From: a virus
IMG/VR virus record: IMGVR_UViG_3300045988_128165
Length of the DNA: 64,000 nucleotides
Reading direction: 5' to 3' (one strand)
The translations under genes and the position numbers were made by a program. The notes beneath the pieces were generated by a model, which did no database searches, was not told the origin of the DNA, and saw nothing but the letters and a program-made list of their open reading frames with translations. Below, piece by piece: positions 13,177 to 36,786 of the stretch. Every line of letters starts with the position of its first letter. Positions within the stretch are counted from its first letter, which is position 1.

Positions 13177-14151
13177 ATGACAGGCAGAACTGAAAAAGAA
13201 ATTGCGTCAACTAAAAGAATGCAAGGAAAATTGAAAGAACTTCCTAAAATCTTTTCTGAATTTTATTATTATATGTGTTCAACAAAATCTTATACAACAG
13301 TTGAAAGATATATTGCATATGTAAGGGAATTTGCAGAATTCTTGAATGATGGGGACATTCCAAATAACTTTTACAAGAGAGTTACTCCGCTAGATATTAA
13401 CAAATATTTTGCGGCAATGAAGAATAAAGAAAGCGCACATGGGCATTATAATACAAGTGACAGCATTCGTGCGACAAAATGGTCTGCGCTGAATACTTTC
13501 TTTGGATTTCTTAAGAGTAATAACTATATTGCAAATAATCCAATGGAGAGAACGGAGCGTCCAAAAGTTCAAGATAGACCAGACGTTGCTTATTTGACAG
13601 AAGAAGAAATTCAGGCAATGCTGGACAATGTTAACAAACTTGCAAGCACAAAAATGAAAAACAGAGATCTGGCGATTATTATGCTTGGACTTACAACTGG
13701 ACTTCGTGTCTCAGCCATTACGCAAATTGATATTAGCGATATTGATTTTAAAAATAATACCATTAAGGTAATTGAAAAAAGAGGAAAAACATGCAACATT
13801 CTTATTGGCGACAAGGTAAAAGAACAGATCGAATTGTGGCTTCAAGATAGAAAAAAATATTTTAGCATGACAGATTCCGATGCGCTGTTTATTTCTAGTT
13901 TTAAGAAAAGAATTACTAGAGATGGAATTAGAGTGATCCTAGAGAAGTATAGTAAAGATGTTACAAATAAGCATGTTACTCCACATGTGCTAAGGCATTC
14001 TTGTGCAACAAATCTGTATGAGAAAACAGGAGATATTTATCTTTGTGCGACAGTGCTAAATCATAAAAATATTGCTACTACTATGAGATATGCAAGTATG
14101 TCTAAAGACAAAAAACAGAAAGCAGCGAACATTTTGAATGATATGATTTAA
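13177..14151 (+). CDS. tyrosine recombinase, XerC/D-like
   Basis: TGLRVSA (Arg I), HVLRHSCAT (HxxR), NHKNIATTMRY (His/Tyr). Confidence 0.8.
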   Translation: MTGRTEKEIASTKRMQGKLKELPKIFSEFYYYMCSTKSYTTVERYIAYVREFAEFLNDGDIPNNFYKRVTPLDINKYFAAMKNKESAHGHYNTSDSIRATKWSALNTFFGFLKSNNYIANNPMERTERPKVQDRPDVAYLTEEEIQAMLDNVNKLASTKMKNRDLAIIMLGLTTGLRVSAITQIDISDIDFKNNTIKVIEKRGKTCNILIGDKVKEQIELWLQDRKKYFSMTDSDALFISSFKKRITRDGIRVILEKYSKDVTNKHVTPHVLRHSCATNLYEKTGDIYLCATVLNHKNIATTMRYASMSKDKKQKAANILNDMI

Positions 14152-14157
14152 TAAGAT

Positions 14158-14186
14158 TTGACAATTATAATTTTGTACTGTACAAT
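14158..14186 (+). promoter_or_regulatory. sigma-A-type promoter with inverted motif in the spacer
   Basis: TTGACA, 17 nt containing ATAATTTTGTAC, then TACAAT. Confidence 0.65.
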
Positions 14187-14223
14187 ATAAAAGAAATGAA
14201 AAACTCACAAGGAGTGTGATTAT

Positions 14224-15144
14224 GTGTTCTATAATGAGGAGGTTAAAATACAATTCATAAACGATTATAAGAGAAGTAGAGTCGTTAATGAAACTTCATT
14301 AACTGGAATGTTTAACAAGATATATAAATATGAAATACAAAATAAAAAAGATTGCAATAATTTTGCAATTGAAGAAATACTGGCCATGTATCGTTGCTTC
14401 AAAGCGAAATCTGTGCACGTGCTTGAGAATTACAATGTGTATTTAAAAAGCTATGCAGCGTTTTGTATGCATTATGGTTTTGGCATGGAAAACAATTACT
14501 CAAATATTAGTAAGGCCATGCTGCAAGAATGTCTTGATGAAAATATAATTAAACAAAAGTTCTTGACAAGGGAACAGTTTGACGAGGTAGAAGACGAATT
14601 ATACAACTATACAGACAAGGCGTTGCTGGAGTTACTATGGGAAGGCATTAGTGGAAAAAGCATGGAAGATATTGTTGCGTTAAAGAGAAGTATGATAAGT
14701 GAAGACAAACAATATATTTGTTTTGAAGACGGACGAAAAGTAAAGTTATCTGCAAAATTGTATAATTATTTAGACAAGGCATTTGCAGAAAAAGAATATA
14801 TGTGCTATGGGGTAACTGTTAGAGTTAAACAACTAATTGGAGACGATTGTTTATACAAGGAAATGGATAATGCGTATACAGTAGACTCTGATGATAAGTT
14901 TTTCCGTTGGGTATATAGAAGAATTCAGACATATAGGAAGCACGTAGGATTGCCATTGCTTACTATGAAGACAATTGCGGCGTCAGGGCTTTTATATAAA
15001 ATTAAACAAGCAATGGAAAAGAATAATCTTGGGCTAAGAGAATTTTTATATACAGAGGAAGGCAAAGCATTGGCACAGCAATATGGATACAAGTTAAATT
15101 CATATGTTGATGTTATTGCCAACAAGTTTGCAAGTCTGGTGTAG
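14224..15144 (+). CDS. 306-aa protein adjacent to the recombinase; candidate regulator, function unproven
   Basis: ORF track, GTG start 9 nt after AAGGAG; no catalytic recombinase motifs seen. Confidence 0.5.
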   Translation: MFYNEEVKIQFINDYKRSRVVNETSLTGMFNKIYKYEIQNKKDCNNFAIEEILAMYRCFKAKSVHVLENYNVYLKSYAAFCMHYGFGMENNYSNISKAMLQECLDENIIKQKFLTREQFDEVEDELYNYTDKALLELLWEGISGKSMEDIVALKRSMISEDKQYICFEDGRKVKLSAKLYNYLDKAFAEKEYMCYGVTVRVKQLIGDDCLYKEMDNAYTVDSDDKFFRWVYRRIQTYRKHVGLPLLTMKTIAASGLLYKIKQAMEKNNLGLREFLYTEEGKALAQQYGYKLNSYVDVIANKFASLV

Positions 15145-17083: not shown

Positions 17084-18094
17084 ATGGAAGAATTAAAAGA
17101 AATGAATTCTTCCGTTGATGGGCTACAAGATACAATATATACGGAAGTAAAAGATCCATATGGATTCATTTATATCACAACGAATTTGATTGATGGCAAA
17201 AGATATTTAGGCCAAAGAAAATTCTATGGAAATTGGCAAGAATATCTTGGTAGTGGTGCAGCATTTAAACAAGCAATTGACAAATATGGAAAAGAAAATT
17301 TTGTAAGAAATGTAATTGATATTGCTTATTCTGCAGAAGAATTAAATGAAAAGGAATATAATTATAGTGTTTTCTTTAATGCGGTTGAATCTAACAATTG
17401 GTATAATCTTGTTTATGGTGGAGGAACAACGCAAGGATGGACTCCAAGTAAAGAAACAAGAAAAAAGATATCAAAAGCTGCAAAAGAAAGACTTTCAGAT
17501 CCAAATAATCATCCAATGTATAGAAGAGTAGGATTAGTAGGCGAGAATAATCCCCAGTTTAAAGTTTCTCCAAAAGAACGCATGGATGAAGAAACATATA
17601 AACAATGGTATGAAAAACATAAATTATATTGGGCAAATCCAACAACTAAAGGCAAACATATATGGATAGGAAAACAACATCCCAGTTTAGGTAAAAAATT
17701 GTCAGATGAACAAAAATTGAATCTATCAGAAAAAGCAAAAGAAAGATTTATAAATTCAAGCAATCATCCAATGTACGGAAAACATCACACAGAAGAAGCA
17801 AAGCAAAAGATGAGTGATTCTCGTAAAGGGAGTAATTGGTGGAAGTGTAGAAGAATATATTGTATAGAATTAAATCAAATTTTTTGGGGAGCAAAAGAAG
17901 TACAAAATTTATATGGATTTGATCCAAGCTCTATTACAAAGTGCTGTAGAGGCAAACAAAATTATACACATAAACATCCACAAACAGGCGAGGTATTGCA
18001 TTGGTTGTATGCGGAAGATGCAATCAAAAAAGGATATATCACACAAGAAGAGTTAGATGGATATATAAATAGTTTAAAAGGTAAAGGAGACTGA
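17084..18094 (+). CDS. GIY-YIG homing endonuclease with NUMOD3-like repeats
   Basis: GFIYITTN...YLGQ core; repeated HPMY/NPxF-K motifs. Confidence 0.8.
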   Translation: MEELKEMNSSVDGLQDTIYTEVKDPYGFIYITTNLIDGKRYLGQRKFYGNWQEYLGSGAAFKQAIDKYGKENFVRNVIDIAYSAEELNEKEYNYSVFFNAVESNNWYNLVYGGGTTQGWTPSKETRKKISKAAKERLSDPNNHPMYRRVGLVGENNPQFKVSPKERMDEETYKQWYEKHKLYWANPTTKGKHIWIGKQHPSLGKKLSDEQKLNLSEKAKERFINSSNHPMYGKHHTEEAKQKMSDSRKGSNWWKCRRIYCIELNQIFWGAKEVQNLYGFDPSSITKCCRGKQNYTHKHPQTGEVLHWLYAEDAIKKGYITQEELDGYINSLKGKGD

Positions 18095-24522: not shown

Positions 24523-25179
24523 ATGGCAACGAAGGAACAGATGACAGTCCACAAGGCGCTTGCAGAGCTTAAGGTTATTGATTCACGTATCAATAATGCG
24601 ATTTGTTCTGGTACGTTTGTGATTGCGAATAAGCATTCCAATGAGAAGATTCATGGAGTGACTATTAATGAGTTCAAGAACAGCATGAAGTCAGATTTCC
24701 AGAAGGTGTCTGATCTGATTGCAAGACGTAATGCAATCAAGAAGGCAGTTGTTGCATCTAATGCAGTAACGAAGGTTAAGGTTGGTGACACTGAATACAC
24801 AGTTGCTACCGCAATTGAGATGAAGAACCATGGAATGGAGTTCAAGAACACATTCAAGAAGCGTCTTGAATCTCAGTATGCTGTAGCAAAGAATGAGCTT
24901 GATAAGAACAGTGGTGATCCTCTTGAGAAGAGAGCAGAGAATTATGTTCTTAGTGTCATTCAGGCACAGCCGAAGGATTCTAAGATGGCTGTTGATTCGG
25001 AAGCGATGAAGAATCTTCGCGTTCAGTACATCAAGGATAACACTTATGACATCATTGATCCTATTGGCGTCAAGGATGCAATTGAGCAGCTTGACAACGA
25101 GATTTCTAGTTTTATTACAGAAGTTGATGCGGCACTTTCGGTTAGTAACGCACTAACTGTGCTTGATATCGAGTATTAA
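24523..25179 (+). CDS. 218-aa protein, probably abundant, function unknown
   Basis: ORF track; AAGGAG RBS; strong AAG/GAG/CTT codon bias compared with neighbours. Confidence 0.6.
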   Translation: MATKEQMTVHKALAELKVIDSRINNAICSGTFVIANKHSNEKIHGVTINEFKNSMKSDFQKVSDLIARRNAIKKAVVASNAVTKVKVGDTEYTVATAIEMKNHGMEFKNTFKKRLESQYAVAKNELDKNSGDPLEKRAENYVLSVIQAQPKDSKMAVDSEAMKNLRVQYIKDNTYDIIDPIGVKDAIEQLDNEISSFITEVDAALSVSNALTVLDIEY

Positions 25180-25660
25180 GCAGCTAACTTGCTGCCATTC
25201 GAAAACCTAGAACGGACTTGCTTCGATGGTTTTGACCGATACATTGATGTGAAATAATAAAAAAATTGGTCTTCAACAATATTTTTACTAATTCTAATAG
25301 TACAGTAAAAAAGATCTAATATATGGATTGACTTAAAATTAAGATGTACATATATTTTTCAACTGTAAAGATTAAAGTTTAAATATCAATGTTCAGAGAT
25401 CAATGCTCAAAGATTATTTTTTCGTCAAAGTTTAAGTCTTAAAGTTGTAAAGAGGGCTTTTAGATAATTATTAATTAAAATTGTGTGCCCACAAAGTTTT
25501 ACAAAATCCTTGAGCAATGGTTTGGTTTCAAGTTCAATGGCCATAGGTTATCCACAAGGCTGAATGGTAGCAATACTTGTACGAAAATAGGCTAATGTGA
25601 AATAGACAGACTTTTGAGTACTAGCAGAGCTGGGTATCTCTGAAAACTGCCTGTAAATAT

Positions 25661-25749
25661 GGCGGAGTATCCGAATGGCACAGGAAATTGACTTAAAATC
25701 AATCGGCAATTAAGTTTGCTTGCGAGTTCAAATCTCGTCTCCGCTACCA
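25661..25749 (+). tRNA. tRNA-Leu(UAA), type II
   Basis: acceptor GGCGGAG/CTCCGCT, loop CTTAAAA, long variable arm, T-loop TTCAAAT, encoded CCA. Confidence 0.8.
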
Positions 25750-25830
25750 ACTCGCTAACGTTTCTTTTGTATTTCTTTCATTCAGAGTACAACGAAGACA
25801 AGAAATATAGATAAAATGGTTTTATAATAT

Positions 25831-25906
25831 GTCCAAGTAACTCAGCGCATAGAGTATGCGGCTACGAACCACAAAGTCGGGAGTTGGGATCTCCCCTTGG
25901 ATGCCA
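25831..25906 (+). tRNA. tRNA-Arg(ACG) with non-canonical T-loop
   Basis: acceptor GTCCAAG/CTTGGAT, loop CTACGAA, T-loop TTGGGAT, CCA. Confidence 0.65.
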
Positions 25907-25940
25907 ACACATTAATGAATAACACTATTTATCAATTGAG

Positions 25941-26711
25941 ATGATGCCAAATATGTATAGAAGAGAAAAGATTAAAGGGTATGAGCGCTATGAAGTTGAT
26001 ACTAATGGCGTTGTATATAGTCAAAAAGGAAATCCTTTAAAATTTCACGTCAACCATAATGGATATTGTATGGTATGTCTGTGCACGAATGGAGAAATAA
26101 AAGGATTTGGAATACATCAGCTTGTAGCAAGACAATTTATTGAGAATGATGATCCTTTGAATAAAACGCAAGTTAATCATAAAGATGGCAATAAACAGAA
26201 CAATCATGTTGAAAATTTAGAATGGGCAACAGCAAAAGAGAATATGCGCCATTCTGTTGATATCCTCGGCAATTATTTAGAAGACAAAAATGCCAATGCT
26301 CGTACTATTTACGGAGTTGATATAAAAACCCATGAGGTTAAATATAGATTCACAAGTTTGATTGGCGCAGCTAGGTTTTTTGCTGATGATAAAAATAAAG
26401 AAAGACATATACAAGCAACGTTATGGAGAGTCTTAAATCATTATGAAGCGTCACGTTCATATAGAAGTTGTTTATGGTTTTATGAAGACGAATGCCCTTA
26501 TGAAATAAATGATGTAGTTAATTTGTCAGATAACTATATCCCAGATCGTGGGTTCAGAAAACTTTCAGACGATGATGTTAAATGGATTCGCACACATTAT
26601 ATTCCATACGATAATGAGTTTGGAACACGAGGAGTTGCTAGAAGATTTCACATAGATAATAGCACAGTATCAGATATTGTAAATTATAAAACATATACAG
26701 ATATATGCTAA
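25941..26711 (+). CDS. HNH homing endonuclease (NUMOD4 + HNH_3 type)
   Basis: YERYEVDTNGVVYS; NHKDGNKQNNHVENLEW. Confidence 0.85.
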   Translation: MMPNMYRREKIKGYERYEVDTNGVVYSQKGNPLKFHVNHNGYCMVCLCTNGEIKGFGIHQLVARQFIENDDPLNKTQVNHKDGNKQNNHVENLEWATAKENMRHSVDILGNYLEDKNANARTIYGVDIKTHEVKYRFTSLIGAARFFADDKNKERHIQATLWRVLNHYEASRSYRSCLWFYEDECPYEINDVVNLSDNYIPDRGFRKLSDDDVKWIRTHYIPYDNEFGTRGVARRFHIDNSTVSDIVNYKTYTDIC

Positions 26712-26751
26712 CACCATTGACCTTGGCAAGTCATTAAACTACCATCTATAT

Positions 26752-26836
26752 GGGGGTATGGCGTAACTAGCAACCGCGCAAGTCTCAAAAACTTGTGGAG
26801 AAATCCGTCCGGGCGCACATCCCGGTACCCCTACCA
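26752..26836 (+). tRNA. tRNA-Leu(CAA), type II, non-canonical T-loop
   Basis: acceptor GGGGGTA/TACCCCT, loop CTCAAAA, T-arm CCGGG-CGCACAT-CCCGG, CCA. Confidence 0.7.
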
Positions 26837-26839
26837 CAT

Positions 26840-26932
26840 CCTCCTTTAGTGTAATGGTAGCACGGCGCACGCAAGGCGCTAGAGCGGTTCAACTCCGTAA
26901 TGTGTTAGAGCGGTTCAATTCCGCAAGGAGGT
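26840..26932 (+). tRNA. tRNA-Cys(GCA)-like with a 26-nt tandem duplication of the T-arm
   Basis: acceptor CCTCCTT/AAGGAGG; TAGAGCGGTTCAACTCCG then TAGAGCGGTTCAATTCCG. Confidence 0.5.
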
Positions 26933-27116
26933 CGTCTGGCACGGACGAAGTGCGCTGTGGTCATACAGTAAAATGACAAAGCTCATGGCCGATATGGATG
27001 GCGACAAATATGAGCGAGGCAGAACAATTAAATCTTGGGTCTGCAAGTAAGCCTGTCGGCAACAGAGGAGAGCCTTATGCTTGCTAGGTGTTCTAGATGC
27101 CTTTCTCCTCATAAAT

Positions 27117-27215
27117 GGGAACTTGGTCAAGTAGCTAAGACACTGGCGGGGACAGAATAGTGCAAACATTAAGAGCACACTGCCGGAGACACGAGTTCGA
27201 ATCTCGTAGTTCCCA
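27117..27215 (+). tRNA. 99-nt tRNA-like gene with no normal anticodon arm
   Basis: acceptor GGGAACT/AGTTCCC, type II D-arm, canonical T-arm ACGAG-TTCGAAT-CTCGT; centre is a 7-bp stem around 30 nt. Confidence 0.45.
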
Positions 27216-27224
27216 ACTTAATAT

Positions 27225-27309
27225 GGGTCAGTAGCGAATCGGCAAACGCAGCAGACTGTAAATCTGCCTCCTTCGGGAATAGGTGGATCGACACCACCCT
27301 GACCCACCA
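27225..27309 (+). tRNA. tRNA-Tyr(GUA), type II
   Basis: acceptor GGGTCAG/CTGACCC, loop CTGTAAA, T-loop ATCGACA, CCA. Confidence 0.8.
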
Positions 27310-27558
27310 AATGGTAGTAAGTAGTGCAAATTTTATATCAGATAACCAGTAAGGATAAAAGCCGTTGCAGGATTTGCTCCCTGTATCGAGAAAGATTAAA
27401 TTTGAACTCGCTGAAAGTAGCTGGTGAATGGGTATAAAATGGAGTCATGCACGGCTCCGCTTGCTATCATTACCAAGGGATAAGTTGCTTAAACTGTTCG
27501 AACGAACCCTACAAATCGGCAGAAACGGTGACAGCTCGGAAAGACGGCAAATTAATAT

Positions 27559-27710
27559 GCTCCGCTAGCTCAATTGGTCAGAGCACCCGACTTCGCTGCA
27601 TGGTGTAATAGCAACACTGCTTAACCGCGGATTAAGAGATGTAAGGGCAGGACTTACTGCAGCGGCCAATAATCGGGAGGTTCCAAGTTCGATGCTTGGG
27701 CGGAGCACCA
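27559..27710 (+). tRNA. tRNA-Ile(UAU) interrupted in the anticodon loop by a 75-nt tRNA-like insert
   Basis: halves 27559-27593 and 27669-27710 give a canonical 77-nt cloverleaf with loop CTT|ATAA and CCA. Confidence 0.75.
27594..27668 (+). tRNA. nested tRNA-like unit (nominal anticodon GCG) with encoded CCA
   Basis: acceptor CGCTGCA/TGCAGCG, D GTGT/ACAC, anticodon arm CTTAA-CCGCGGA-TTAAG, T-arm GTAAG-GGCAGGA-CTTAC. Confidence 0.65.
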
Positions 27711-27715
27711 AATAT

Positions 27716-27786
27716 TATCGTATAGCTTAATGGGAAAGCGCCCTCACTATCAGAGGGAGATACTTGTTCGATTCAAGTTGCGTTAG
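27716..27786 (+). tRNA. tRNA-like gene with atypical anticodon loop ACTATCA
   Basis: weak acceptor TATCGTA/TGCGTTA, D GCTT/AAGC, stem CCCTC/GAGGG, canonical T-arm; C at positions 33 and 37. Confidence 0.45.
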
Positions 27787-27864
27787 AAAAATGTGGTTGC
27801 TATGCACGTCGCGCGTCGCCACCAAACAAAGCATAGTTGGCGCTGTGGAAAGACACAGAGATCT

Positions 27865-27949
27865 GCAGGAGTCCCATAGTGGTCGATTGGAGCGGTTTTG
27901 TAAGCCGCCAGCTTTGCTCACGTCGGTTCGAATCCGACCTCCTGCTCCA
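27865..27949 (+). tRNA. type II tRNA body with loop TTTGTAA (nominal UGU)
   Basis: acceptor GCAGGAG/CTCCTGC, 3-bp D-stem, 13-nt variable arm, T-arm GTCGG-TTCGAAT-CCGAC, CCA. Confidence 0.6.
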
Positions 27950-27957
27950 CATTATAT

Positions 27958-28073
27958 GCAAGTAAGGAAGAATTGGTCTTCTCTCATTTAACAAAGCTGA
28001 GATACAAAAAGATCGCTACTTTGGAAACGTTCGCTTTGGGGAAATGTGTGTTCGAATCACACTACTTGCTCCA
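27958..28073 (+). tRNA. 116-nt tRNA-like gene with about 40 extra central nt
   Basis: acceptor GCAAGTA/TACTTGC, D GAAG/CTTC, T-arm GTGTG-TTCGAAT-CACAC, CCA; centre does not fold as a standard arm. Confidence 0.45.
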
Positions 28074-28197
28074 GCGAGGTAACGTCACTTCCATCACGTA
28101 GCACAGCGGATAGCAAATAGTAAAAGAGATATGTGCACCTAGGCTCTTGTTTGAACTATTTGGTTATGATAAAGAAGGATTGGAATCCTCGCTTTAT

Positions 28198-28287
28198 GAG
28201 AGCGTAACTCAGTTGGTAGAGTTTTATAGCGTGAAGGGATATGCTATTGAATGCCCTTAGTCGCCAGTTCGAATCTGGCCGCTCTCA
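28198..28287 (+). tRNA. 90-nt tRNA-like gene with expanded anticodon region
   Basis: acceptor GAGAGCG/CGCTCTC, D ACTC-AGTTGGTA-GAGT, T-arm GCCAG-TTCGAAT-CTGGC; interleaved stems ATAGC/GCTAT and AAGGG/CCCTT. Confidence 0.45.
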
Positions 28288-28314
28288 TTAAAATATATAT
28301 TAGGAGAAATAGTT

Positions 28315-28554
28315 ATGGCAATTAAAATAATTAATAAAGGAAAAGATCTTGATAATCCTATATTTACACAGCGATGCCCTAATTGCGATTGCGTTTTTAC
28401 CTATCAGAATGAAGATGCTTATAGAAAGCCTACTGGTAGATATTATAGAGACTTTGACATTTGTTTTATGGACGATTACAAACAAGAAATTACAGTATCT
28501 ATTGAATGTCCTTGGTGCCACAAAAAAATTCATGTAAAAGACGAATATATATAA
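28315..28554 (+). CDS. zinc-ribbon protein
   Basis: ORF track; CPNCDC...CPWCH; AGGAG RBS. Confidence 0.55.
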   Translation: MAIKIINKGKDLDNPIFTQRCPNCDCVFTYQNEDAYRKPTGRYYRDFDICFMDDYKQEITVSIECPWCHKKIHVKDEYI

Positions 28555-28577
28555 CTCGAATCCTTCTTGTCGCGCCA
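28555..28577 (+). pseudogene. isolated 3' third of a tRNA (T-loop to CCA)
   Basis: CTCGAAT-CCTTC-TTGTCGC-G-CCA begins at the base after the stop codon; no 5' partner nearby. Confidence 0.55.
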
Positions 28578-28635
28578 GATTAAAAATTGTTAAGAGTGTG
28601 GTTCTCTTTGTGCAATGATATAATGGAGGAATAAG

Positions 28636-28839
28636 ATGAAAATTGAAAACAAGGTTTTTCTATGTTCTAATTATGCAACCCCAGTGCTAGAAGAGGCACT
28701 TGATGCATTTTCTAACGAAGGTTATAAATTGGTTTCTACCCAGATGGCAAAGAATCTCTATGGGGTCGAAGTAATGTATTTGTTTTTTACGAGGAAAGTA
28801 AAAAATAAAAAGCGAAAATCAGACTCGCAAGGAACGTGA
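28636..28839 (+). CDS. 67-aa protein, paralog of 22008..22175
   Basis: ORF track; GGAGG RBS. Confidence 0.55.
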   Translation: MKIENKVFLCSNYATPVLEEALDAFSNEGYKLVSTQMAKNLYGVEVMYLFFTRKVKNKKRKSDSQGT

Positions 28840-28846
28840 TATTAAT

Positions 28847-29014
28847 ATGCGACCATTTATGGAAAATATCTGTATGCATCCTCATTGCATGAATCCAATG
28901 TGTGAAGAATGTAGTTTCTTTACTCCCAGAGTTTTCGGTATTAGAGTGCCTAAGAGCTTGGGGTTGGCACTTTTTAAACTGGAAGGATTACTTAACACGA
29001 TGATTCGTTTTTAA
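28847..29014 (+). CDS. 55-aa Cys-rich ORF
   Basis: open frame filling a gap; weak RBS. Confidence 0.35.
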   Translation: MRPFMENICMHPHCMNPMCEECSFFTPRVFGIRVPKSLGLALFKLEGLLNTMIRF

Positions 29015-29021
29015 CTAGTAT

Positions 29022-29096
29022 GGGTCTGTAATTCAATAGTAGAATATACGCCTTTTAAGCGTACTACGGACGGAGCGTAACCGCCCAGACCCACCA
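29022..29096 (+). tRNA. tRNA-Lys(UUU) with non-canonical T-loop
   Basis: acceptor GGGTCTG/CAGACCC, loop CTTTTAA, T-loop AGCGTAA, CCA. Confidence 0.75.
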
Positions 29097-29192
29097 TTTA
29101 TTCTCTGTAATTTAGTCCACTTGACTCCGGTATAATCTTCTGCTCTGTTACCTGTTTGTGCAGGTTAGATGAATAAAGACAGAGTTATTTAT

Positions 29193-29268
29193 GGCTGGCG
29201 GGAGGTTGGCATCTCAACTTGGCTCATAATCAAGCTCAATTCAGTTCGATTCTGAAGCTCAGCAACCA
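29193..29268 (+). tRNA. tRNA-Met/Ile2(CAU)-like with imperfect acceptor stem
   Basis: arm CTTGG-CTCATAA-TCAAG, T-arm TTCAG-TTCGATT-CTGAA; only 5 of 7 acceptor pairs. Confidence 0.45.
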
Positions 29269-29271
29269 AAT

Positions 29272-29345
29272 AGCGGATTAGTGTAATAGTAGCACGACAG
29301 ACTTTGAATCTGTAGGTAGGGGAGCATAGCCTCTATCCGCTGCCA
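29272..29345 (+). tRNA. tRNA-Gln(UUG) with non-canonical T-loop
   Basis: acceptor AGCGGAT/ATCCGCT, loop CTTTGAA, T-loop AGCATAG, CCA. Confidence 0.75.
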
Positions 29346-29376
29346 TGTAAATATTAATTTTTAGGAGGAATATATT

Positions 29377-29484
29377 ATGAACACAAGGACTGCACTACAT
29401 TATGAGAATCGTATTGCGAAGCTAAAGGCCAAGAGTGAAGTTGTAAATGCAAACCTGATCAACAAAGCACAGAGGGAGCTTAAT
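29377..29484 (+). CDS. 35-aa ORF
   Basis: ATG behind AGGAGG, between two tRNAs. Confidence 0.35.
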
Positions 29485-29509
29485 AAGCTGACACAGAAGT
29501 AAGAATATG

Positions 29510-29584
29510 CGGTAGTAGCTCAATGGTAGAGCATCAGATTTCCAATCTGATTGTTGCGAGATCGTGCCTCGTCTACCGCTCCAT
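29510..29584 (+). tRNA. tRNA-Gly(UCC) with non-canonical T-loop
   Basis: acceptor GCGGTAG/CTACCGC, loop TTTCCAA, T-loop ATCGTGC, CCA. Confidence 0.75.
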
Positions 29585-29616
29585 TGGCGTTGACCATTAT
29601 TGGCAGCGACCACAGG

Positions 29617-29649
29617 GGGGTCTAGAGCTTTCTAGGCTCCCATTTTTTT
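29617..29649 (+). terminator. intrinsic terminator ending the tRNA array
   Basis: 9-bp stem (2 GU pairs) followed by ATTTTTTT. Confidence 0.7.
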
Positions 29650-29705
29650 GTGCAATTTGTACAATTGACAAAATGAAAATATATGATATGATAACGATAG
29701 ATTGA

Positions 29706-29720
29706 ACAATACAAAATTAT
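29706..29720 (+). repeat. motif copy ACAATACAAAATTAT
   Basis: 15 nt upstream of ATG 29735; TTGACA at 29665 upstream. Confidence 0.8.
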
Positions 29721-29734
29721 TGCGAGGTAAAAAA

Positions 29735-30385
29735 ATGAATAATATTAAAAAATTACTTATCATTGTTGGCCTTATTATTTTAATTTTATTTTCAATTTCG
29801 ATTAATGATGGTAAGAATATGAACGGCAAACAACCTTTGAAAGAAATCCCCATAGAGTGTACGGAGACACCGGCACTAGAAGAAATGCCAGCTATGGATC
29901 CAGAGGATGAACTTATTACATATGAAGAAGTTGCAGAAGTGGTTGCTGAAGATCAACCAGATATGTTTGCCGCACCACAGCCACAATATTCTGAAAGTGA
30001 TTTGATGCTTTTAGCAAAAGTAATATATGCAGAGGCAGGAAGTGATTTTTTGTCAGATGAGTGGAAGATGTGTGTTGGCGAGGTTGTGTTAAATCGTGTT
30101 GCATCTCCTGAGTTTCCTAATACGATTACTGATGTTGTTTATCAGCCCGGACAATATCATGGGGCACGAAGTGGATATATTGCAAGTCTAATTCCGAGTG
30201 AGCGATGCATTGATGCTGCAAAAAGGCTATTGAATGGAGAACGAATTATGGAGCCTTCGGTTGTTTTTCAAGCGAATTTTAAACAGGGCAGTGGAGTTTA
30301 TAAGGCGCTATATGATAGCCGTCTTGGGTGGACATATTTCTGTTATTCCACAAACATGAGTCTTTACGGAGGTGCATTTAATTGA
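29735..30385 (+). CDS. SleB-type cell-wall hydrolase with N-terminal TM
   Basis: LLAKVIYAEAG...VVLNRV...PGQY; ORF track 29702 trimmed past the motif. Confidence 0.65.
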   Translation: MNNIKKLLIIVGLIILILFSISINDGKNMNGKQPLKEIPIECTETPALEEMPAMDPEDELITYEEVAEVVAEDQPDMFAAPQPQYSESDLMLLAKVIYAEAGSDFLSDEWKMCVGEVVLNRVASPEFPNTITDVVYQPGQYHGARSGYIASLIPSERCIDAAKRLLNGERIMEPSVVFQANFKQGSGVYKALYDSRLGWTYFCYSTNMSLYGGAFN

Positions 30386-30567
30386 AATATATGAAAATAA
30401 GTACTTTTGCAGAAAAGCTAAATGCACGAAATGGTGATCAAATTAGTAAAAATCTAGTTGATTTCTGGTTTGATATATATGGATATGATATTAACCATGA
30501 GCCAACAAATGAAGATAAAAATGCCAAAAACAAAAATAATAATGAAGGAGAAAATGAAAATGGCTAA
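30382..30567 (+). CDS. hypothetical protein
   Basis: ORF track, TTG start after GGAGGTG. Confidence 0.45.
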   Translation: MKYMKISTFAEKLNARNGDQISKNLVDFWFDIYGYDINHEPTNEDKNAKNKNNNEGENENG

Positions 30568-31560: not shown

Positions 31561-32664
31561 ATGATTTACCTAGATAACGCTGCTACATCTCCAATTTGTG
31601 AAGCCGCAAAGAATATTATCCTTGACAATCTTGACGAATATTACAATCCAAACAGTTCATATGAGGATGCTCGTGGAGTAAAGATTAAGGTCGAGGAAGC
31701 ACGTGAAAAGATTGCGGCACTAATTGGAGCACAACCTGACGAGATTTACTTTACTTCTGGTGGATCTGAAGCAAATTCATGGGTTTCAAATCATGATTTT
31801 ACACTAGCATCTAACATTGAGCATCATTCTATTGATCCAGACTATAAATTCAAGGTCGATTATAGAGGAATGGTTGATATAGAGAAATTTGAAAAAAGAG
31901 TAAATGAATTGCAGAATAATTATTTCGGTATTAGTCCGGGTATTGCTTCATGTATGATGGTAAATAATGAACTTGGAGTTATTGAGCCAATTGAAGAACT
32001 AGCAAAGATTGCTCATGATAATCATATGTTGTTCCATACAGATGCAGTTCAGGCATTCCCTCATATGAAAATTAATGTAGAAGAGCTTGGCGTAGATATG
32101 TTGTCATGCTCTGCTCATAAGTTTGGTGGGATTAAAGGATGCGGATTCCTTTATATCAAAGATGGAATTCATATTCATCCTTTAATTAATGGTGGAAGCC
32201 AAGAAAGAGGAATCAGAGGTGGCACAACTAATGTCCTTGGTGTCTTGGCTATGGCTGCTGCGCTAGAAGATACGACAACCCATATGAATGGAAATAATGC
32301 AAAAATTGCACGTTTATCCAATAAGATTAAAGATAATTTATTGAATGTAAAAGGTGTCACAATTAATGGGGCAACAGATAAAAAGCAGCATTTAGACAGT
32401 ATTTTGAACTTTAGAATTGATGGTGTACATGGTTCAGATGTTGTTGCGATGGCTGACGAATTTGGGATTGCTATTAGTGCTGGTTCAGCTTGCAATGAAG
32501 GTGATGCCATTCCATCTCATGTGCTAAAAGCAATTGGTTTGTCTGACGAAGAGGCACTAAGTAGCATTCGTGTATCTCTTGGAAGATATAATACAGAAGA
32601 AGAAATTGATTATGCTTGTGTGATTCTTCCAAAGGTCATTGAAAGATTGAGATCACTTAATTGA
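31561..32664 (+). CDS. cysteine desulfurase (NifS/IscS-like, class V PLP enzyme)
   Basis: SAHKFGG (PLP lysine) and SAGSACN (active-site Cys loop). Confidence 0.8.
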   Translation: MIYLDNAATSPICEAAKNIILDNLDEYYNPNSSYEDARGVKIKVEEAREKIAALIGAQPDEIYFTSGGSEANSWVSNHDFTLASNIEHHSIDPDYKFKVDYRGMVDIEKFEKRVNELQNNYFGISPGIASCMMVNNELGVIEPIEELAKIAHDNHMLFHTDAVQAFPHMKINVEELGVDMLSCSAHKFGGIKGCGFLYIKDGIHIHPLINGGSQERGIRGGTTNVLGVLAMAAALEDTTTHMNGNNAKIARLSNKIKDNLLNVKGVTINGATDKKQHLDSILNFRIDGVHGSDVVAMADEFGIAISAGSACNEGDAIPSHVLKAIGLSDEEALSSIRVSLGRYNTEEEIDYACVILPKVIERLRSLN

Positions 32665-32694: not shown

Positions 32695-33858
32695 ATGATT
32701 ATCAATAATAAAAGAGCGCTTGCATACATCCAGCATGTAACCAACATTCGTCCTATTGATGGTGCAGATAATATTGAACAGTGTAATGTACTTGGATGGA
32801 ATCTCATTTGTAAGAAGGGTGAATTCCATGAAGGCGATCCTTGTGTTTATATTGAGATTGACTCAAAAGTCCCTGAGAGAGAGGAATTTGAATTCCTTCG
32901 TGCAAAAGGCTTTAAGGTCAAGACAATGAAGCTTGGTAAGTTTAATTGTATCAGTCAGGGCCTTGCCATGCCACAGTCTGCATTTAAAGAGTTGGTAGGG
33001 CTTTCAGAGGGGACTGATGTAACCGATATTCTTGGAATTAAGTATTCCGTACAAGAGGATAATGCTCGTAAGAGCAATGGCGATCCTAATGCAAAATATA
33101 AATCTATGGCCGCTCGTCACCAGAAAATCTTTAAAAAGAAGTGGGCACGTTGGATGATGCGTCGTTCTTGGGGGCGTAAGGTTATGTTTTTCTTCTTCGG
33201 CAAGAAGAAAGATAACCCTCGTGGTTTTCCTTCATTTGTTTCAAAGACAGACGAAGAGCGTGTAGAAAATCAGCCTTGGCGTATTAGTGATGGCAAGACT
33301 TATATCGCTACAGAAAAGCTAGATGGCACTTCTTGTACTTATGCACTTGAACGAACAGGTCGTAATAAGTTTGAGTTTTATGTTTGTTCTCGTAATGTAA
33401 GACAGCAGGACGAGAAACAAGAGTGTTATCATGACCATAACATCTATTGGGATTTGGCGTTTAAGTACAATATCGAACAGCATTTGAAGGATATCCTAAA
33501 TCAATTTCCTAAGCTTAAATGGGTATGCATTCAAGGCGAGGGCGTAGGTTCTGTTCAGGGCAATCCTCTGAAGCTCAAGGAAGATGATTTATATGTTTTT
33601 AATTTTAAAGATTCTGAAAGGGGAAGATATAATTCTATCATTGGTAGAGCGATTATTGAAAAGATGGGCATGAAATGGGTTCCCATTCTTGGAAAAGTTC
33701 AAATGCCAGACACTATGGAGGAACTTAAGGCGCTTGCAACTGGCAAGTCCAAGGTGAATCCAGATGTAATGCGTGAAGGTATTGTGTACCGTTCTTTGGA
33801 TGGTAGTGATAGTTTCAAAAATGTCAGCCGCGAGTATTTGCTAAAACATAATAATTAA
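32695..33858 (+). CDS. ATP-dependent RNA ligase (N-terminal OB-like domain + KxDG nucleotidyltransferase; DraRnl/Rnl5-like)
   Basis: ATEKLDGTS motif I; N-terminus IRPIDGADNIE...GW..ICKKGEF..GD. Confidence 0.6.
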   Translation: MIINNKRALAYIQHVTNIRPIDGADNIEQCNVLGWNLICKKGEFHEGDPCVYIEIDSKVPEREEFEFLRAKGFKVKTMKLGKFNCISQGLAMPQSAFKELVGLSEGTDVTDILGIKYSVQEDNARKSNGDPNAKYKSMAARHQKIFKKKWARWMMRRSWGRKVMFFFFGKKKDNPRGFPSFVSKTDEERVENQPWRISDGKTYIATEKLDGTSCTYALERTGRNKFEFYVCSRNVRQQDEKQECYHDHNIYWDLAFKYNIEQHLKDILNQFPKLKWVCIQGEGVGSVQGNPLKLKEDDLYVFNFKDSERGRYNSIIGRAIIEKMGMKWVPILGKVQMPDTMEELKALATGKSKVNPDVMREGIVYRSLDGSDSFKNVSREYLLKHNN

Positions 33859-33877: not shown

Positions 33878-34717
33878 ATGAACTATCATTCAGATAAATA
33901 CATAATGGACGGTGTTCGAGAGCATTATAACGAAGCTCTCGAATACTTTCCAGAGGATAGAATTGTGGGCATCTTCTATCAAGGTAGTGGCAATTATGGA
34001 CTTGATTATGAGGGTTCTGACGTTGATACAAAGTTGATTGTAACTCCAACTCTTGATGATATAATTTTCACTCACAAACCTGTAAGCACCACTCATATTA
34101 GAAATAACGATGAGCATACTGATTGGAAAGACATCAGACTTATGCTTCAAACATTCAGAAAATGTAATTTGAATTTTACAGAAATTCTTTTTACTAAATA
34201 CAAAATTGTTAATTCTCTATATATGAAACAGTGGGATAGAGTCGTTGATAACAACGAACTTATTGCGAGATATAATGAAGTTGCAGCAGTAAGGACAATG
34301 AAGGGCATTGCTATGGAAAAATATCATGCAATGGAACATAAATATCCTTCTAAAATTGAGATTATTGATAAATATGGATTTGATGGGAAGCAAGTTCATC
34401 ACTTATTTAGGGTAGAAGAATATTTACAAAGATATATTAATGGCGAATCTTATGCAGACTGTTTAATTTCAAAGCAAGCAGAATATCTTAAAAATGTTAA
34501 GACTTGTGGTTATCTTTCTCTCGAAGAAGCAAGAGTTTTAGCAAAAGAGTCTTTAAACAGAATATGTATAATGGCTGACAAGTTCCGCGCAGAGCATATA
34601 GAAGAATCTAATCCAAATGTTGATAATCTTTTAGACGATGTTCAACGAGAAATTATGCTAATCGCTATTAAGAGAGAAATTAACGATTATAGGATACAAA
34701 ACAATGTAAATTTATAA
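33878..34717 (+). CDS. Pol-beta-superfamily nucleotidyltransferase
   Basis: GSGNYGLDYEGSDVD signature (GS...DxD). Confidence 0.6.
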   Translation: MNYHSDKYIMDGVREHYNEALEYFPEDRIVGIFYQGSGNYGLDYEGSDVDTKLIVTPTLDDIIFTHKPVSTTHIRNNDEHTDWKDIRLMLQTFRKCNLNFTEILFTKYKIVNSLYMKQWDRVVDNNELIARYNEVAAVRTMKGIAMEKYHAMEHKYPSKIEIIDKYGFDGKQVHHLFRVEEYLQRYINGESYADCLISKQAEYLKNVKTCGYLSLEEARVLAKESLNRICIMADKFRAEHIEESNPNVDNLLDDVQREIMLIAIKREINDYRIQNNVNL

Positions 34718-34777: not shown

Positions 34778-35440
34778 ATGGGTTATATTTATAAAATTAC
34801 TAATAATATCAATAACAAATGTTATATTGGGAAAACAGAAAGAACTATTCAAGTCAGATGGTCAGAACATATCCGTTCAAGTAAATGTAAGCCAGATTTA
34901 CCATTATATCGAGCGTTCTTAAAATATGGCATAGATAATTTTTCAATTGAAGAAATAGAAGAATGTGATAATGCTATTTTAGATGAACGAGAAATTTATT
35001 GGATTGATTATTTTAATGCCTACAGAGAAGGATATAATTGCACGGCTGGTGGAGAAGGTGGAATAAAAACATATGAAGAAAATATTGATATTATTATTGA
35101 ACGCTATCAACAAGGAGAAAGGTTAGATCGTTTATGTAAAGAATATCATTATGATTACGCATGTATTAGACCTAAACTTGAAGCAAAAGGTCTCATTATT
35201 AATACAACGGCTGGGCCAGAAAAATTAAGCAAGAAAATATATGCAGTAGACCCAATTACATTACAAGTTGTTGCAGAATATGAATCTATTTCTGCCGCTG
35301 GTAGAGCTTTATGTAAAGATAGTAAAAATCCTAGAGCAATAGCAAACCATATTGTTAAACAAAAAGATACTGAACATGTATCTCATGGATTTTTATGGCG
35401 TACCACTGAAACTATACGAGATTATGAAGATTGCAATTAA
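34778..35440 (+). CDS. GIY-YIG homing endonuclease
   Basis: GYIYKITN...CYIGKT...R..EH...N. Confidence 0.85.
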   Translation: MGYIYKITNNINNKCYIGKTERTIQVRWSEHIRSSKCKPDLPLYRAFLKYGIDNFSIEEIEECDNAILDEREIYWIDYFNAYREGYNCTAGGEGGIKTYEENIDIIIERYQQGERLDRLCKEYHYDYACIRPKLEAKGLIINTTAGPEKLSKKIYAVDPITLQVVAEYESISAAGRALCKDSKNPRAIANHIVKQKDTEHVSHGFLWRTTETIRDYEDCN

Positions 35441-35868: not shown

Positions 35869-36786
35869 ATGACTAAATTCTTTATGATGATTGGTTTGGC
35901 TGGCAGCGGCAAGAGTGAACAGGCCAAGAAACTTGCAGCAAAATATGATGCAGAAATTTTTTCTAGTGACTCACTTCGAGAGGAAATGTTCGGAGATGTG
36001 AACCATCAGACGGATAATGATGTTTTGTTTAAAGAGCTCCACAAGCGTATTAGAGGATGCCTGACTTATGGAAAGAGCGCCATTTATGATGCTTGTAATA
36101 TTAGCTATAAGCGTCGCATGGAGTTTCTTAAGTCTCTCAATAAAATCCCTTGTGAGAAGATTGCAGTTCTTATGGCAACGCCTTATGAAGTTTGTCTTGA
36201 ACGCAATTCACAGCGTGAGCGGGAAGTGCCAGAGCATGTAATTAAACGTATGTATATGAACTTTAACGTACCTTTTTGGTACGAAGGTTGGGATGATATT
36301 GATGTTGTTTATTCTGAAGATGCGATGGACTATAAAGGATGGGATAGAGATTGGATCGAATCAGTGAAAGATTTTAACCAAGACAATTCTCATCATGCCT
36401 TATCTCTTGGAGACCATTGTTGGAATGCTGTAAAATATATTGATAGTAACACACCATCTTTGCATTCAACGTCCACTGAACTTAGACATGCAGCAATGCT
36501 ACATGACGAGGGAAAAATCTTTACGAAAAGCTTTTATGATGCAAGAGGGAATCCTTCAGAAGATGCGCATTATTATTCCCATGAGCGTTGTGGGGCATAC
36601 AATAGCTTATTCTACGAAATGCCCTGCGAACATCTTTATGTAGCACAGCTTATTCAGTGGCATATGCGACCTTATCTCGCATGGGAGCAATCTGACAAAG
36701 CTATGCAGAAAGATAGGAAACTTCTTGGTGAACCTTTATTTAACGATATTTGTCTATTGCATGCTGCCGATGTGTCAGCGCATTGA
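35869..36786 (+). CDS. P-loop polynucleotide-kinase-like domain fused to an HD phosphohydrolase domain
   Basis: GLAGSGKS Walker A; C-terminal H...LHDEGK...H. Confidence 0.6.
   Translation: MTKFFMMIGLAGSGKSEQAKKLAAKYDAEIFSSDSLREEMFGDVNHQTDNDVLFKELHKRIRGCLTYGKSAIYDACNISYKRRMEFLKSLNKIPCEKIAVLMATPYEVCLERNSQREREVPEHVIKRMYMNFNVPFWYEGWDDIDVVYSEDAMDYKGWDRDWIESVKDFNQDNSHHALSLGDHCWNAVKYIDSNTPSLHSTSTELRHAAMLHDEGKIFTKSFYDARGNPSEDAHYYSHERCGAYNSLFYEMPCEHLYVAQLIQWHMRPYLAWEQSDKAMQKDRKLLGEPLFNDICLLHAADVSAH

Follow-up and report, generated by a model that had tools for sequence, protein, structure and literature searches.

A tRNA-shaped insert in the anticodon loop of a gut phage tRNA-Ile(UAU) gene, and a candidate class of phage tRNA introns bounded by tRNA-like ends

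The anticodon loop of a tRNA-Ile(UAU) gene of an uncultured human-gut phage is interrupted by a second, tRNA-shaped unit, whose ends coincide with the points at which an intact anticodon would be restored. The gene lies at positions 27559 to 27710 of a 64,000-nucleotide (nt) stretch of IMG/VR record IMGVR_UViG_3300045988_128165 (hereafter the window), part of a phage genome of about 150 kb with 36% G+C and a DnaE-type polymerase some 33% identical to those of Bacillota phages. The reading proposed here, with roughly even odds (about 0.5), is that the locus is a functional phage tRNA-Ile(UAU) gene with an intron shaped like a tRNA minihelix, which would be cut at its tRNA-like ends and the exons religated. 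The architecture of the gene and the rule that sets the insert boundaries are solid; splicing of the RNA, the cutting enzymes, the chemistry of the ends and the sealing ligase are proposed from gene sequences. A first-pass annotation had divided the locus into a 5' exon, an insert and a 3' exon, a division confirmed letter by letter (Table 1).

When the two exons are joined they form, as that annotation had claimed, a 77-nt cloverleaf called by ARAGORN as tRNA-Ile(tat), with the seven-nt anticodon loop CUUAUAA, U33 and a purine at position 37. Its four helices are 100% paired among the relatives described below and carry compensatory changes. The interruption falls between nt 34 and 35, in the middle of the anticodon, and the junction k-mer of the predicted spliced tRNA would be GAGCACCCGACTTATAATCGGGAGG. 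The unspliced gene (27559-27710) was not called a tRNA by default ARAGORN or by the Rfam tRNA model. With introns allowed, ARAGORN forced the intron to 37/38 of the genomic sequence and reported tRNA-Arg(tcg); depending on the variant, tRNA finders give nothing, Arg(tcg), Arg(tct) or Lys(ttt). Since standard tRNA finders miss or misname interrupted genes in this way, metagenomic inventories of phage tRNAs and analyses of codon supply are biased. The splice registers behind the Arg(UCG), Arg(UCU) and Lys(UUU) calls were ruled out, as the first insert base covaries with a partner in the insert helix and only the 34/35 register fits the rule of a 7-bp helix plus 4 nt common to all insert families. 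Single-sequence folding of the whole interrupted gene was uninformative (minimum free energy, MFE, z-score -1.79).

The mature tRNA would probably be charged with isoleucine, as suggested by its UAU anticodon and by the identity elements of isoleucyl-tRNA synthetase. In E. coli this identity set comprises A73, C4-G69, U12-A23, C29-G41, A37 and A38. All of these are present in the joined tRNA and invariant in the four lineages of the outer tRNA (alignment columns 4/146, 12/24 and 30/118). AUA makes up 10% of the Ile codons in the window, which is not decisive, and ARAGORN called no other tRNA-Ile in the type B and C arrays of the related phages.

Both strands of the window were scanned by geometry alone. 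The pattern called for an acceptor of 7 bp, 2 nt before a D stem of 4 bp, and a T arm (5 bp, 7-nt loop) placed directly against the 3' strand of the acceptor. Besides the true tRNAs, it recovered the inner unit, 27594-27664, followed by GCCA. The insert is thus tRNA-like in its 7-bp helix, in its 5-bp/7-nt T hairpin joined without spacer, and in its discriminator with a CCA-like tail. It has neither a canonical D loop (G18 G19) nor a canonical T loop (T54 Psi55 C56), the corresponding loops being AATAGCA and GGCAGGA. The same elbow type, a GGCAGNA T loop with a 7-nt AAnAGYA D loop, occurs in uninterrupted decoding tRNAs (Gln, Lys, Ile and Trp) from many unrelated IMG/VR metagenomes and two metagenome-assembled genomes (MAGs). 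Within the window, the D loop AATAGTA is combined with a non-canonical T loop in both tRNA-Gln (29272-29345) and tRNA-Lys (29022-29097). It follows that the insert uses a body plan of phage tRNAs, a fold that the processing enzymes of the cell must already handle. Its similarity to the phage's own tRNAs is modest (z 3.6-4.6 to tRNA-Gln types), so that descent from a specific tRNA is a suggestion only.

Several side observations concern these elbows. A class of phage tRNAs, found in the window and in loci L062-L096, combines a D loop AA(T/C)AG(T/C)A without G18G19 with the T loops GGCAGNA, AGCGTAA or AGCATAG. The tRNA-Lys(UUU) at 29022-29097 escapes ARAGORN, but Rfam scores it at 47.7 bits. Many unrelated metagenomes contain tRNAs with the exact arm GTAGG-GGCAGCA-CCTAC; in 185,579 GTDB genomes the GGCAGCA arm gave two ordinary tRNAs in MAGs and otherwise chance hits only.

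The first-pass annotation had pointed to related phages as a place to look for the same architecture, and there it recurs. A gapped pattern built on the two exon ends matched 19 IMG/VR contigs of 87-168 kb; 26 IMG/VR contigs carry an invariant 17-mer of the T-like arm, and 27 human-gut metagenome contigs from ENA/JGI match a 19-mer extension of it, one of these matches, within a coding region, being due to chance. The 19-mer had no hit in the 185,579 GTDB genomes. Altogether, the interrupted Ile unit is present in about 50 human-gut phage contigs, in 17 distinct versions and four lineages of the outer tRNA, whose acceptor stems begin with GCTCCGC, CCCCTGC, CCCCAAC and CCTCCAG. Being present in dozens of independent assemblies, the insert is not an assembly artefact. 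GenBank phages were searched for near and distant DNA matches to the locus and to three interrupted genes; only the outer tRNA halves were hit, and no cultured phage was found with an insert.

Covariation supports both the outer and the inner fold. Across the 17 versions 96.8% of the cells of the nested structure are paired, compared with 33-48% when the partners are slid by 1-3 columns. Twenty pairs show compensatory changes, and none of 500 shuffles reached the observed values. The inner 7-bp helix is paired throughout, with six of its seven pairs covarying; in the outer tRNA covariation was found in the acceptor (5/7 pairs), the T stem (4/5) and the anticodon stem (2/5), each 100% paired. 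RNAalifold predicted the nested fold independently. Compensatory changes are also seen in the inner D-like stem. MAFFT aligned the inner anticodon-like stem out of register, but its covariation is visible by eye (CTTAA/TTAAG, CTAAA/TTTAG, CTGA/TCAG, CTG/CAG, CTT/AAG). Where the first insert base is T instead of C, its partner is A instead of G; this base is therefore part of the insert helix, which places the 5' junction after U34. The anticodon-loop letters CTT and ATAA are constant in 17/17 variants, and positions of the outer D and T loops vary. Compensatory changes in four lineages that all bear the insert indicate that the outer tRNA has been kept under selection after the insertion.

Loci of related phages hold many tRNAs that ARAGORN calls with introns when these are allowed. 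The window and loci L001-L061 were scanned for an outer cloverleaf whose anticodon loop consists of p nt, a 7-bp helix unit, four unconstrained nt and q nt, with p+q=7. Six combinations of tRNA and insert fit this pattern, and tRNA-Thr and tRNA-Leu were added by relaxed outer criteria and reading by eye, giving a total of eight (Table 2). The element is hence not peculiar to tRNA-Ile, as it had first appeared, seven further combinations being found in Gln, Lys, Thr and Leu tRNAs.

Table 2. Combinations of tRNA and insert, with the anticodon-loop letters on either side of the insert
tRNA	Source	5' loop letters	3' loop letters	Restored loop	Insert length (nt)
Ile(UAU)	window gene	CTT	ATAA	CUUAUAA	72-76
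Gln(UUG)	L003/L047	CTTT	GAC	CUUUGAC	71
Gln-type	L004/L015	CTTT	GAC	CUUUGAC	49
Gln-type	L007/L049	CTT	TGAC	CUUUGAC	48
Lys(UUU)	L009/L015/L025	CTT	TTAA	CUUUUAA	56
Lys(UUU)	L020/L021	CTTT	TAA	CUUUUAA	61
Thr(UGU)	L025 and others	CTTG	TAA	CUUGUAA	65
Leu(UAA)	L004, L077, L087 and others	CTT	AAAA	CUUAAAA	47-57

In all eight combinations, removal of the unit that runs from helix to tail restores a textbook 7-nt anticodon loop, and the tail is ACCA, GCCA, TCCA or ACAA although it was left unconstrained in the scan. The CCA that had been noted on the inner unit is encoded here as GCCA; across the family it is not strict, two families having ACAA. A hairpin of 5 bp with a 7-nt loop abuts the 3' strand of the helix without spacer in every insert, and nucleotide -1 is U in seven of the eight families. 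Between the 5' strand of the helix and the hairpin lie 12 to 41 nt, in which D-like and anticodon-like arms may be present or absent. Across the family, the first base of the predicted intron would correspond to position +1 of a tRNA and the last to A76. The 5' junction always lies 0 nt and the 3' junction 4 nt from the insert helix, whereas the distance to the outer anticodon stem varies (3 or 4 nt); the cutting activity is therefore expected to read the inner minihelix. In a relaxed scan, spurious candidates had no helix or implied tails of -5 to +10 nt, and all real tRNAs gave 4. A trivial 8-bp register also arises, as U-1 can pair with N73. By a rough estimate of the authors from base-pair odds, a 7-bp helix in the allowed register would be expected in fewer than 1% of random inserts, before hairpin and tail are considered.

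Independent checks of the boundary rule come from homologous genes. L003 and L047 belong to close relatives of the window, with which they share a 96% identical RNA ligase, and in them the ortholog of the window tRNA-Gln(UUG), located between the same Met and Gly tRNAs, holds a clean 71-nt insertion with near-identical flanks. This insertion consists of precisely [GCTTGAT...ATCAAGC]+ACCA and separates CTTT from GA in the anticodon loop; with a D-like loop AATAGTA and a T-like loop GGCAGAA, it has the same loop types as the Ile insert. Filled and empty alleles of tRNA-Gln in nearly identical phages indicate that the inserts are mobile, that is, gained or lost. The restored Gln anticodon agrees with the uninterrupted ortholog, and two unrelated inserts, at positions 34/35 and 35/36 of homologous Gln-type tRNAs, yield the same restored loop CUUUGAC. 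Likewise, the interrupted Thr body equals an uninterrupted Thr(tgt) paralog; the interrupted Leu genes have a class II variable arm and 5' halves that match annotated tRNA-Leu in BLAST searches, by which the interrupted Lys gene also matches annotated tRNA-Lys. Two sister inserts exceed the gathering score of the Rfam tRNA model (L020 4082-4139, 38.5 bits; L025 4426-4487, 39.4 bits), with hits that run from the predicted +1 to the predicted N73.

Mobility might also be taken to mean that a selfish or accidental insertion, by a tRNA-derived mobile element or a duplication, inactivated the gene and left a decaying pseudogene. The presence/absence polymorphism between close relatives, the many different tRNA genes hit and the genes for HNH and GIY-YIG homing endonucleases within or close to the arrays would suit this explanation, and these endonucleases are possible agents of insert mobility at the DNA level. 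Mobility is compatible with a spliced intron, however, and compensatory changes have preserved the outer cloverleaf and the loop letters in four lineages whose divergence postdates the insertion; moreover, no uninterrupted copy with a UAU anticodon and the anticodon stem of the Ile gene was found in IMG/VR. A pseudogene is accordingly considered very unlikely.

The exons might also never be religated. The chimera itself, or the halves and the free tRNA-like RNA released by RNase P, would then be functional, as a scaffold or as a decoy or sponge for host anticodon nucleases or tRNA-binding defence proteins. This possibility, which covers the decoy and the deliberately split tRNA offered as alternatives by the first-pass annotation, is judged quite unlikely. 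It could account for the T-like arm GTAAG-GGCAGGA-CTTAC, constant in stem and loop in all copies of the Ile insert and across lineages, which is more than upkeep of a helix requires. The sites, moreover, all lie in C32-U33-U34 loops (Lys, Gln, Thr, Leu, Ile), a group that includes classical targets of anticodon nucleases, and the array holds several other non-canonical tRNA-like genes unable to decode. A scaffold or decoy gives no reason for p+q = 7 in eight families, however, and leaves unexplained both the flanking letters that reproduce the correct anticodon loop of each tRNA body and the uninterrupted ortholog equal to the predicted ligation product; the middle part of the inserts is also poorly conserved between families.

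On the reading of the insert as a spliced intron, the tRNA array would be transcribed as a single precursor, in which RNase P would recognize the inner minihelix and cut at +1 (27593/27594), leaving the 5' exon with the 3'-OH of U34. An endonuclease, possibly an RNase Z of the Thermotoga type or RNase E, would cut directly 3' of the N-C-C/A-A tail and free the 3' exon with a 5'-phosphate. The two exons would be held together by the outer acceptor, D/T and anticodon stems, and a phage RNA ligase would seal the nick in the anticodon loop. The classical minimal substrate of RNase P is an acceptor/T-arm minihelix that has U at -1 and ends in a 3' RCCA. The insert matches it in geometry and in letters, and all inserts keep the acceptor/T-arm minihelix, which makes RNase P the obvious candidate for cutting on the 5' side. 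For T. maritima RNase Z, endonucleolytic cleavage just past an encoded CCA has been described, and RNase E can generate the CCA end directly (PMC7479834). The broader proposal, that mobile introns of gut phages in the form of tRNA minihelices hijack RNase P at the 5' end and a CCA-end endonuclease at the 3' end, a phage RNA ligase joining the exons, and that they would represent an undescribed intron class, is held tentatively, at somewhat short of even odds.

A candidate sealing enzyme is encoded downstream of the array as an ATP-dependent RNA ligase, and together with it a polynucleotide kinase, so that the window carries an RNA repair pair whose action on the Ile RNA is putative. The first-pass annotation had named an RNA ligase, a kinase-HD enzyme and a nucleotidyltransferase. 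All three genes were found; the ligase is of the Rnl5/DRB0094 and not of the T4 Rnl1 type, and the HD part of the kinase was recognized by its motifs, with no Pfam hit. The nucleotidyltransferase-like protein matched no Pfam, PDB or NCBIfam entry. RNA ligase and kinase genes occur within about 12 kb of the interrupted tRNA in lineages A, B and C and in L087, L092 and L099, and the ligase family differs among them. A divergent RNA-ligase-like protein is found in lineage B, with an HD protein, a nucleotidyltransferase and a kinase near the interrupted tRNA, and a kinase with a T4 Rnl1-like ligase in lineage C. L087, which comes from another metagenome and has the Leu insert, also encodes a kinase and an Rnl1-like ligase, and L092 and L099 an HD protein and an Rnl1-like ligase. 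The cuts of RNase P and of an RNase Z-like enzyme or RNase E leave 3'-OH and 5'-phosphate ends, which can be ligated without healing, so that no kinase would be needed; the window kinase is a candidate end-healing enzyme required only if the cuts leave a 5'-OH. The earlier proposal of a tRNA-shaped intervening sequence holds for the conserved, covarying unit, its exact tRNA-end boundaries and the filled/empty allele pair, and can dispense with the kinase if the cuts are of this kind. As a side observation, the ligase, kinase and nucleotidyltransferase together with a Thg1-like protein and a cysteine desulfurase make up an unusually rich toolkit for tRNA repair and modification.

Several points weigh against splicing as the fate of this RNA. 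Splicing is a prediction from gene sequences, and one weak point is the putative 3' nuclease: bacteria do not in general cut precisely after A76, and CCA inhibits cleavage by many RNase Z enzymes (PMC7479834). The 3-4 single-stranded nt between the outer anticodon stem and the inner helix could hinder RNase P, and Pfam scans of 40 window and locus open reading frames, which cover part of each genome, revealed no RNase P, RNase Z, RtcB or EndA/Sen-type splicing endonuclease. The fold energy of the insert is not unusual (MFE z-score -0.37), and neither ARAGORN nor Rfam RF00005 called 27594-27668 a tRNA, even at E<=10; the case for the insert being more than chance is thus carried by the comparative data. 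The inner cloverleaf claimed at first is borne out by geometry, covariation and RNAalifold, whereas the MFE structure retains only the acceptor-like and T-like helices. In the GenBank phage search the body of the joined outer tRNA was most similar to annotated tRNA-Lys genes, and for this reason its isoleucine identity is given as no more than probable. RNA-repair cassettes are common in tRNA-rich phages, so that the nearby ligase and kinase genes count for little as evidence, and the characterized Rnl5-type ligases are known to seal nicks in duplexes rather than breaks in loops.

The same intron with the same boundaries might instead be removed by a dedicated endonuclease, phage- or host-encoded, leaving a 2',3'-cyclic phosphate and a 5'-OH that the kinase/HD-phosphoesterase would heal before the ligase seals them, in the manner of fungal and plant Trl1 healing and sealing or of T4 Pnkp/Rnl1 repair. 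The kinase that accompanies the ligase in each lineage checked, the HD-domain proteins and several conserved open reading frames of no recognizable family beside the arrays are consistent with such a pathway, and the tolerance of CAA in the tail indicates that strict recognition of CCA is not required. It is nevertheless considered unlikely: no EndA/Sen-like or other RNA endonuclease family appeared among the open reading frames scanned, the only features common to all inserts are tRNA ends, which existing tRNA-processing enzymes already read, and the repair of damage by anticodon nucleases is a separate and well-known task of kinase-ligase cassettes.

Self-splicing or self-cleavage, by a miniature group I-like intron or a pair of small ribozymes, would need no cutting protein. 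As in group I introns, the 5' junction follows a U; the tRNA-Leu(UAA) inserts occupy the classical group I site U34/A35, and one related array contains a twister-P1 ribozyme match. The U at -1 is invariant in the Ile gene (CTT before the insert), yet RNase P substrates share it, so it does not discriminate. The inserts, at 47-76 nt, are far too short for a group I core, and apart from tRNA-end geometry no sequence is common to all insert families. The Ile insert variants end in A (GCCA, ACCA or ACAA) and not in G, and their 72-76 nt fall well below the length of about 200 nt expected of group I introns. Rfam detected no group I core (RF00028) in 25000-30500 at a threshold of E<=1, nor in 27585-27680 at E<=10, and covariance models of small self-cleaving ribozymes (hammerhead, twister, pistol, hatchet, HDV, hairpin) found nothing at the Ile locus; even at E<=10 no Rfam intron or ribozyme matched the insert. 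An RNA-catalysed reaction is hence hardly credible here.

Bacterial tRNA introns have been described as group I only, with 21 cases in tRNA-Leu UAA, fMet, Ile, Arg and others (10.1101/2020.01.27.920355), and full-text literature searches returned no description of tRNA-shaped tRNA introns, in agreement with the first-pass annotation, which knew of no bacterial or phage precedent. Like the phage inserts, the bacterial group I introns are mobile and reside in the anticodon loop of bacterial-type tRNAs after a U, and the Leu(UAA) inserts share their U34/A35 site. They differ in having more than 200 nt, a P3-P9 core, a terminal G and a P1/P10 guide, whereas the phage inserts are bounded by tRNA-like ends. 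Archaeal and eukaryal bulge-helix-bulge (BHB) introns (PMC4090602) are also short, non-catalytic and located in the anticodon loop, and they are removed by protein enzymes and an RNA ligase while the tRNA body holds the exons, as proposed here for the inserts. They are, however, cut by EndA/Sen, typically at 37/38, whereas the phage inserts lie at 34/35 or 35/36, are tRNA-shaped and end in NCCA. A BHB, taken as two 3-nt bulges on opposite strands that carry both cleavage sites, with a 4-bp helix between them, is absent from the Ile gene, where a single internal loop (3 nt / 8 nt) that separates the outer anticodon stem from the 7-bp helix contains both junctions, opposite one another at the foot of that helix.

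Embedded tRNA-like folds whose ends are set by RNase P and RNase Z, as proposed for the inserts, are known from MALAT1 mascRNA, mitochondrial tRNA punctuation and plant mitochondrial t-elements (PMC1920247); the flanks of those elements stay unjoined and no other functional RNA is interrupted, whereas the inserts split a tRNA into halves that would rejoin. Split and permuted tRNA genes of Nanoarchaeum and Cyanidioschyzon (PMC3978253) likewise have discontinuous tRNA information and junctions in the anticodon loop, but they depend on BHB-type splicing of separate or permuted transcripts, whereas the phage gene is colinear with a nested tRNA-like unit. The last step proposed for the inserts has a counterpart in T4 Pnkp/Rnl1, a phage kinase and RNA ligase that act on a tRNA nicked in the anticodon loop; there, a host nuclease damages host tRNA-Lys, whereas the break at an insert would be programmed in a precursor of the phage itself, and the window ligase is Rnl5-type, an Rnl1-like ligase being found in lineage C. 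The engineered tRNA scaffold also places a structured RNA in an anticodon arm and relies on the tRNA body for processing and stability, but it is artificial, replaces the anticodon loop and has no excision rule.

If the inserts are spliced, they would represent a further kind of intron beside the group I, group II, spliceosomal and BHB introns, and the first tRNA intron of the bacterial world spliced by proteins or ribonucleoproteins, with RNase P as a splicing endonuclease. They would also provide a living example of tRNA-like modules that are inserted into and removed from other RNAs, and thus a system for asking how tRNA introns and split tRNAs arose and whether tRNA-like RNAs enter broken anticodon loops and become fixed. 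Phage RNA ligases might have in them a housekeeping substrate besides the repair of nuclease damage. The boundary rule, with its 7-bp helix, abutting T arm and 4-nt tail, has the simplicity needed for engineering a programmable excision module.

Table 1. Features of the interrupted tRNA gene and of its surroundings in the window
Feature	Position	Strand	Details and basis
5' exon of outer tRNA	27559-27593	+	GCTCCGC TA GCTC AATTGGTCA GAGC A CCCGA CTT; acceptor 5' strand, D arm, anticodon-stem 5' strand CCCGA, loop C32 U33 U34; sequence, ARAGORN on joined exons, covariation of outer helices
tRNA-shaped intervening sequence, 75 nt	27594-27668	+	sequence, geometric scan, covariation
Insert helix, 5' strand	27594-27600	+	7 bp, acceptor-like, CGCTGCA/TGCAGCG
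Insert D-like arm	27603-27617	+	4-bp stem, loop AATAGCA
Insert anticodon-like arm	27620-27636	+	stem CTTAA/TTAAG
Insert T-like arm	27641-27657	+	GTAAG-GGCAGGA-CTTAC, 5 bp/7-nt loop, abuts helix
Insert helix, 3' strand	27658-27664	+	
Insert tail GCCA	27665-27668	+	
3' exon of outer tRNA	27669-27710	+	ATAA TCGGG AGGTT CCAAG TTCGATG CTTGG GCGGAGC A CCA; A35 U36 A37 A38, anticodon-stem 3' strand TCGGG, variable loop, T arm, acceptor 3' strand, A73, encoded CCA; sequence, ARAGORN, covariation
Uninterrupted tRNA-Gln(UUG), empty site of related 71-nt insert	29272-29345	+	alignment with L003 9151-9295
tRNA array transcription unit with the interrupted gene	25328-29641	+	
Promoter-like site upstream of array	25328-25356	+	promoter count not above chance
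Terminator-like hairpin	29616-29641	+	11-bp stem and T-run
GIY-YIG (SegE-like) endonuclease	17084-18094		
HNH homing endonuclease inside tRNA array	25941-26711		
NifS/IscS-type cysteine desulfurase	31561-32664		
ATP-dependent RNA ligase, Rnl5 (DRB0094 / Naegleria NgrRnl) type, candidate sealing enzyme	32695-33858	+	Pfam PHA02142 OB domain and RNA_ligase; PDB 5cot E=5e-42; NCBIfam TIGR02306
Nucleotidyltransferase-like protein between ligase and kinase, context only	33878-34717	+	PHROG phrog_388
GIY-YIG (SegE-like) endonuclease between nucleotidyltransferase and kinase genes	34778-35440		missing from some relatives
Polynucleotide kinase, Pnkp-kinase-like N-terminal half, HD-like motifs in C-terminal half	35869-36786	+	Pfam AAA_33; PDB 4gp7 (CthPnkp kinase domain); TIGR04075; translation
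Thg1-like protein (tRNA-His guanylyltransferase / 3'-5' polymerase family)	44077-44916		

The array of the window contains further unusual tRNA-like genes, of which those beginning at 26840, 27117, 27958 and 28197 do not obey the boundary rule. In the gene at 26840-26933 the T arm is duplicated in tandem (AGAGCGGTTCAACTCCGT / AGAGCGGTTCAATTCCGC); the ARAGORN call is SeC(tca) with an intron of 17 nt in the window and Cys(gca) in L011 and L016. The one at 27117-27209 has the acceptor GGGAACT/AGTTCCC, a canonical T arm and 33 nt between the strands of the anticodon stem, where a hairpin, GTGC-AAACATTAAGA-GCAC, departs from the minihelix/NCCA rule; it is conserved in relatives, as Ser(gga) or Val(gac) with a 25-27-nt intron. 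A 112-nt gene followed by CCA (27958-28073) combines the canonical T arm GTGTG-TTCGAAT-CACAC with an 11-nt anticodon-like loop and an extra region of about 42 nt, and is conserved in relatives within an ARAGORN call of Asn(gtt) with an intron of 90 nt. Ordinary decoding is unlikely for a 92-nt 'tRNA-Phe(gaa)' (28197-28288), whose anticodon arm is surrounded by additional sequence, and for a 73-nt 'tRNA-Ile(tat)/Asp(atc)' (27715-27787) with a mismatched acceptor and the loop ACTATCA, which has no U33 and has C37.

Other large or structured elements were seen in the related arrays. Near 4135 of L007 and 1357 of L042, ARAGORN called tRNA-Leu(taa) genes with anticodon-loop insertions of 762-767 nt, which gave no Rfam group I match at E<=0.5. 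Genes of 119-144 nt with long inserts outside the 7-bp plus 4-nt rule (L004 12781-12900, L007 6834-7101) were called Thr(ggt), Val(aac) and Stop(tta). The twister-P1 match mentioned above lies inside an array (L020 4493-4559; 66.1 bits against a gathering score of 67.2), and a RAGATH-33 match was found at L042 2615-2743 (119 bits against 120.4). ROOL RNA (297-304 bits) adjoins the tRNA arrays of lineage C (L020 6380-7012, L025 8324-8918). Elsewhere, the window encodes two adjacent tyrosine-recombinase-like genes, an NAD-dependent DNA ligase and a gene of the xanthine/uracil permease family (13177-15144, 47952-49883, 60587-61837).

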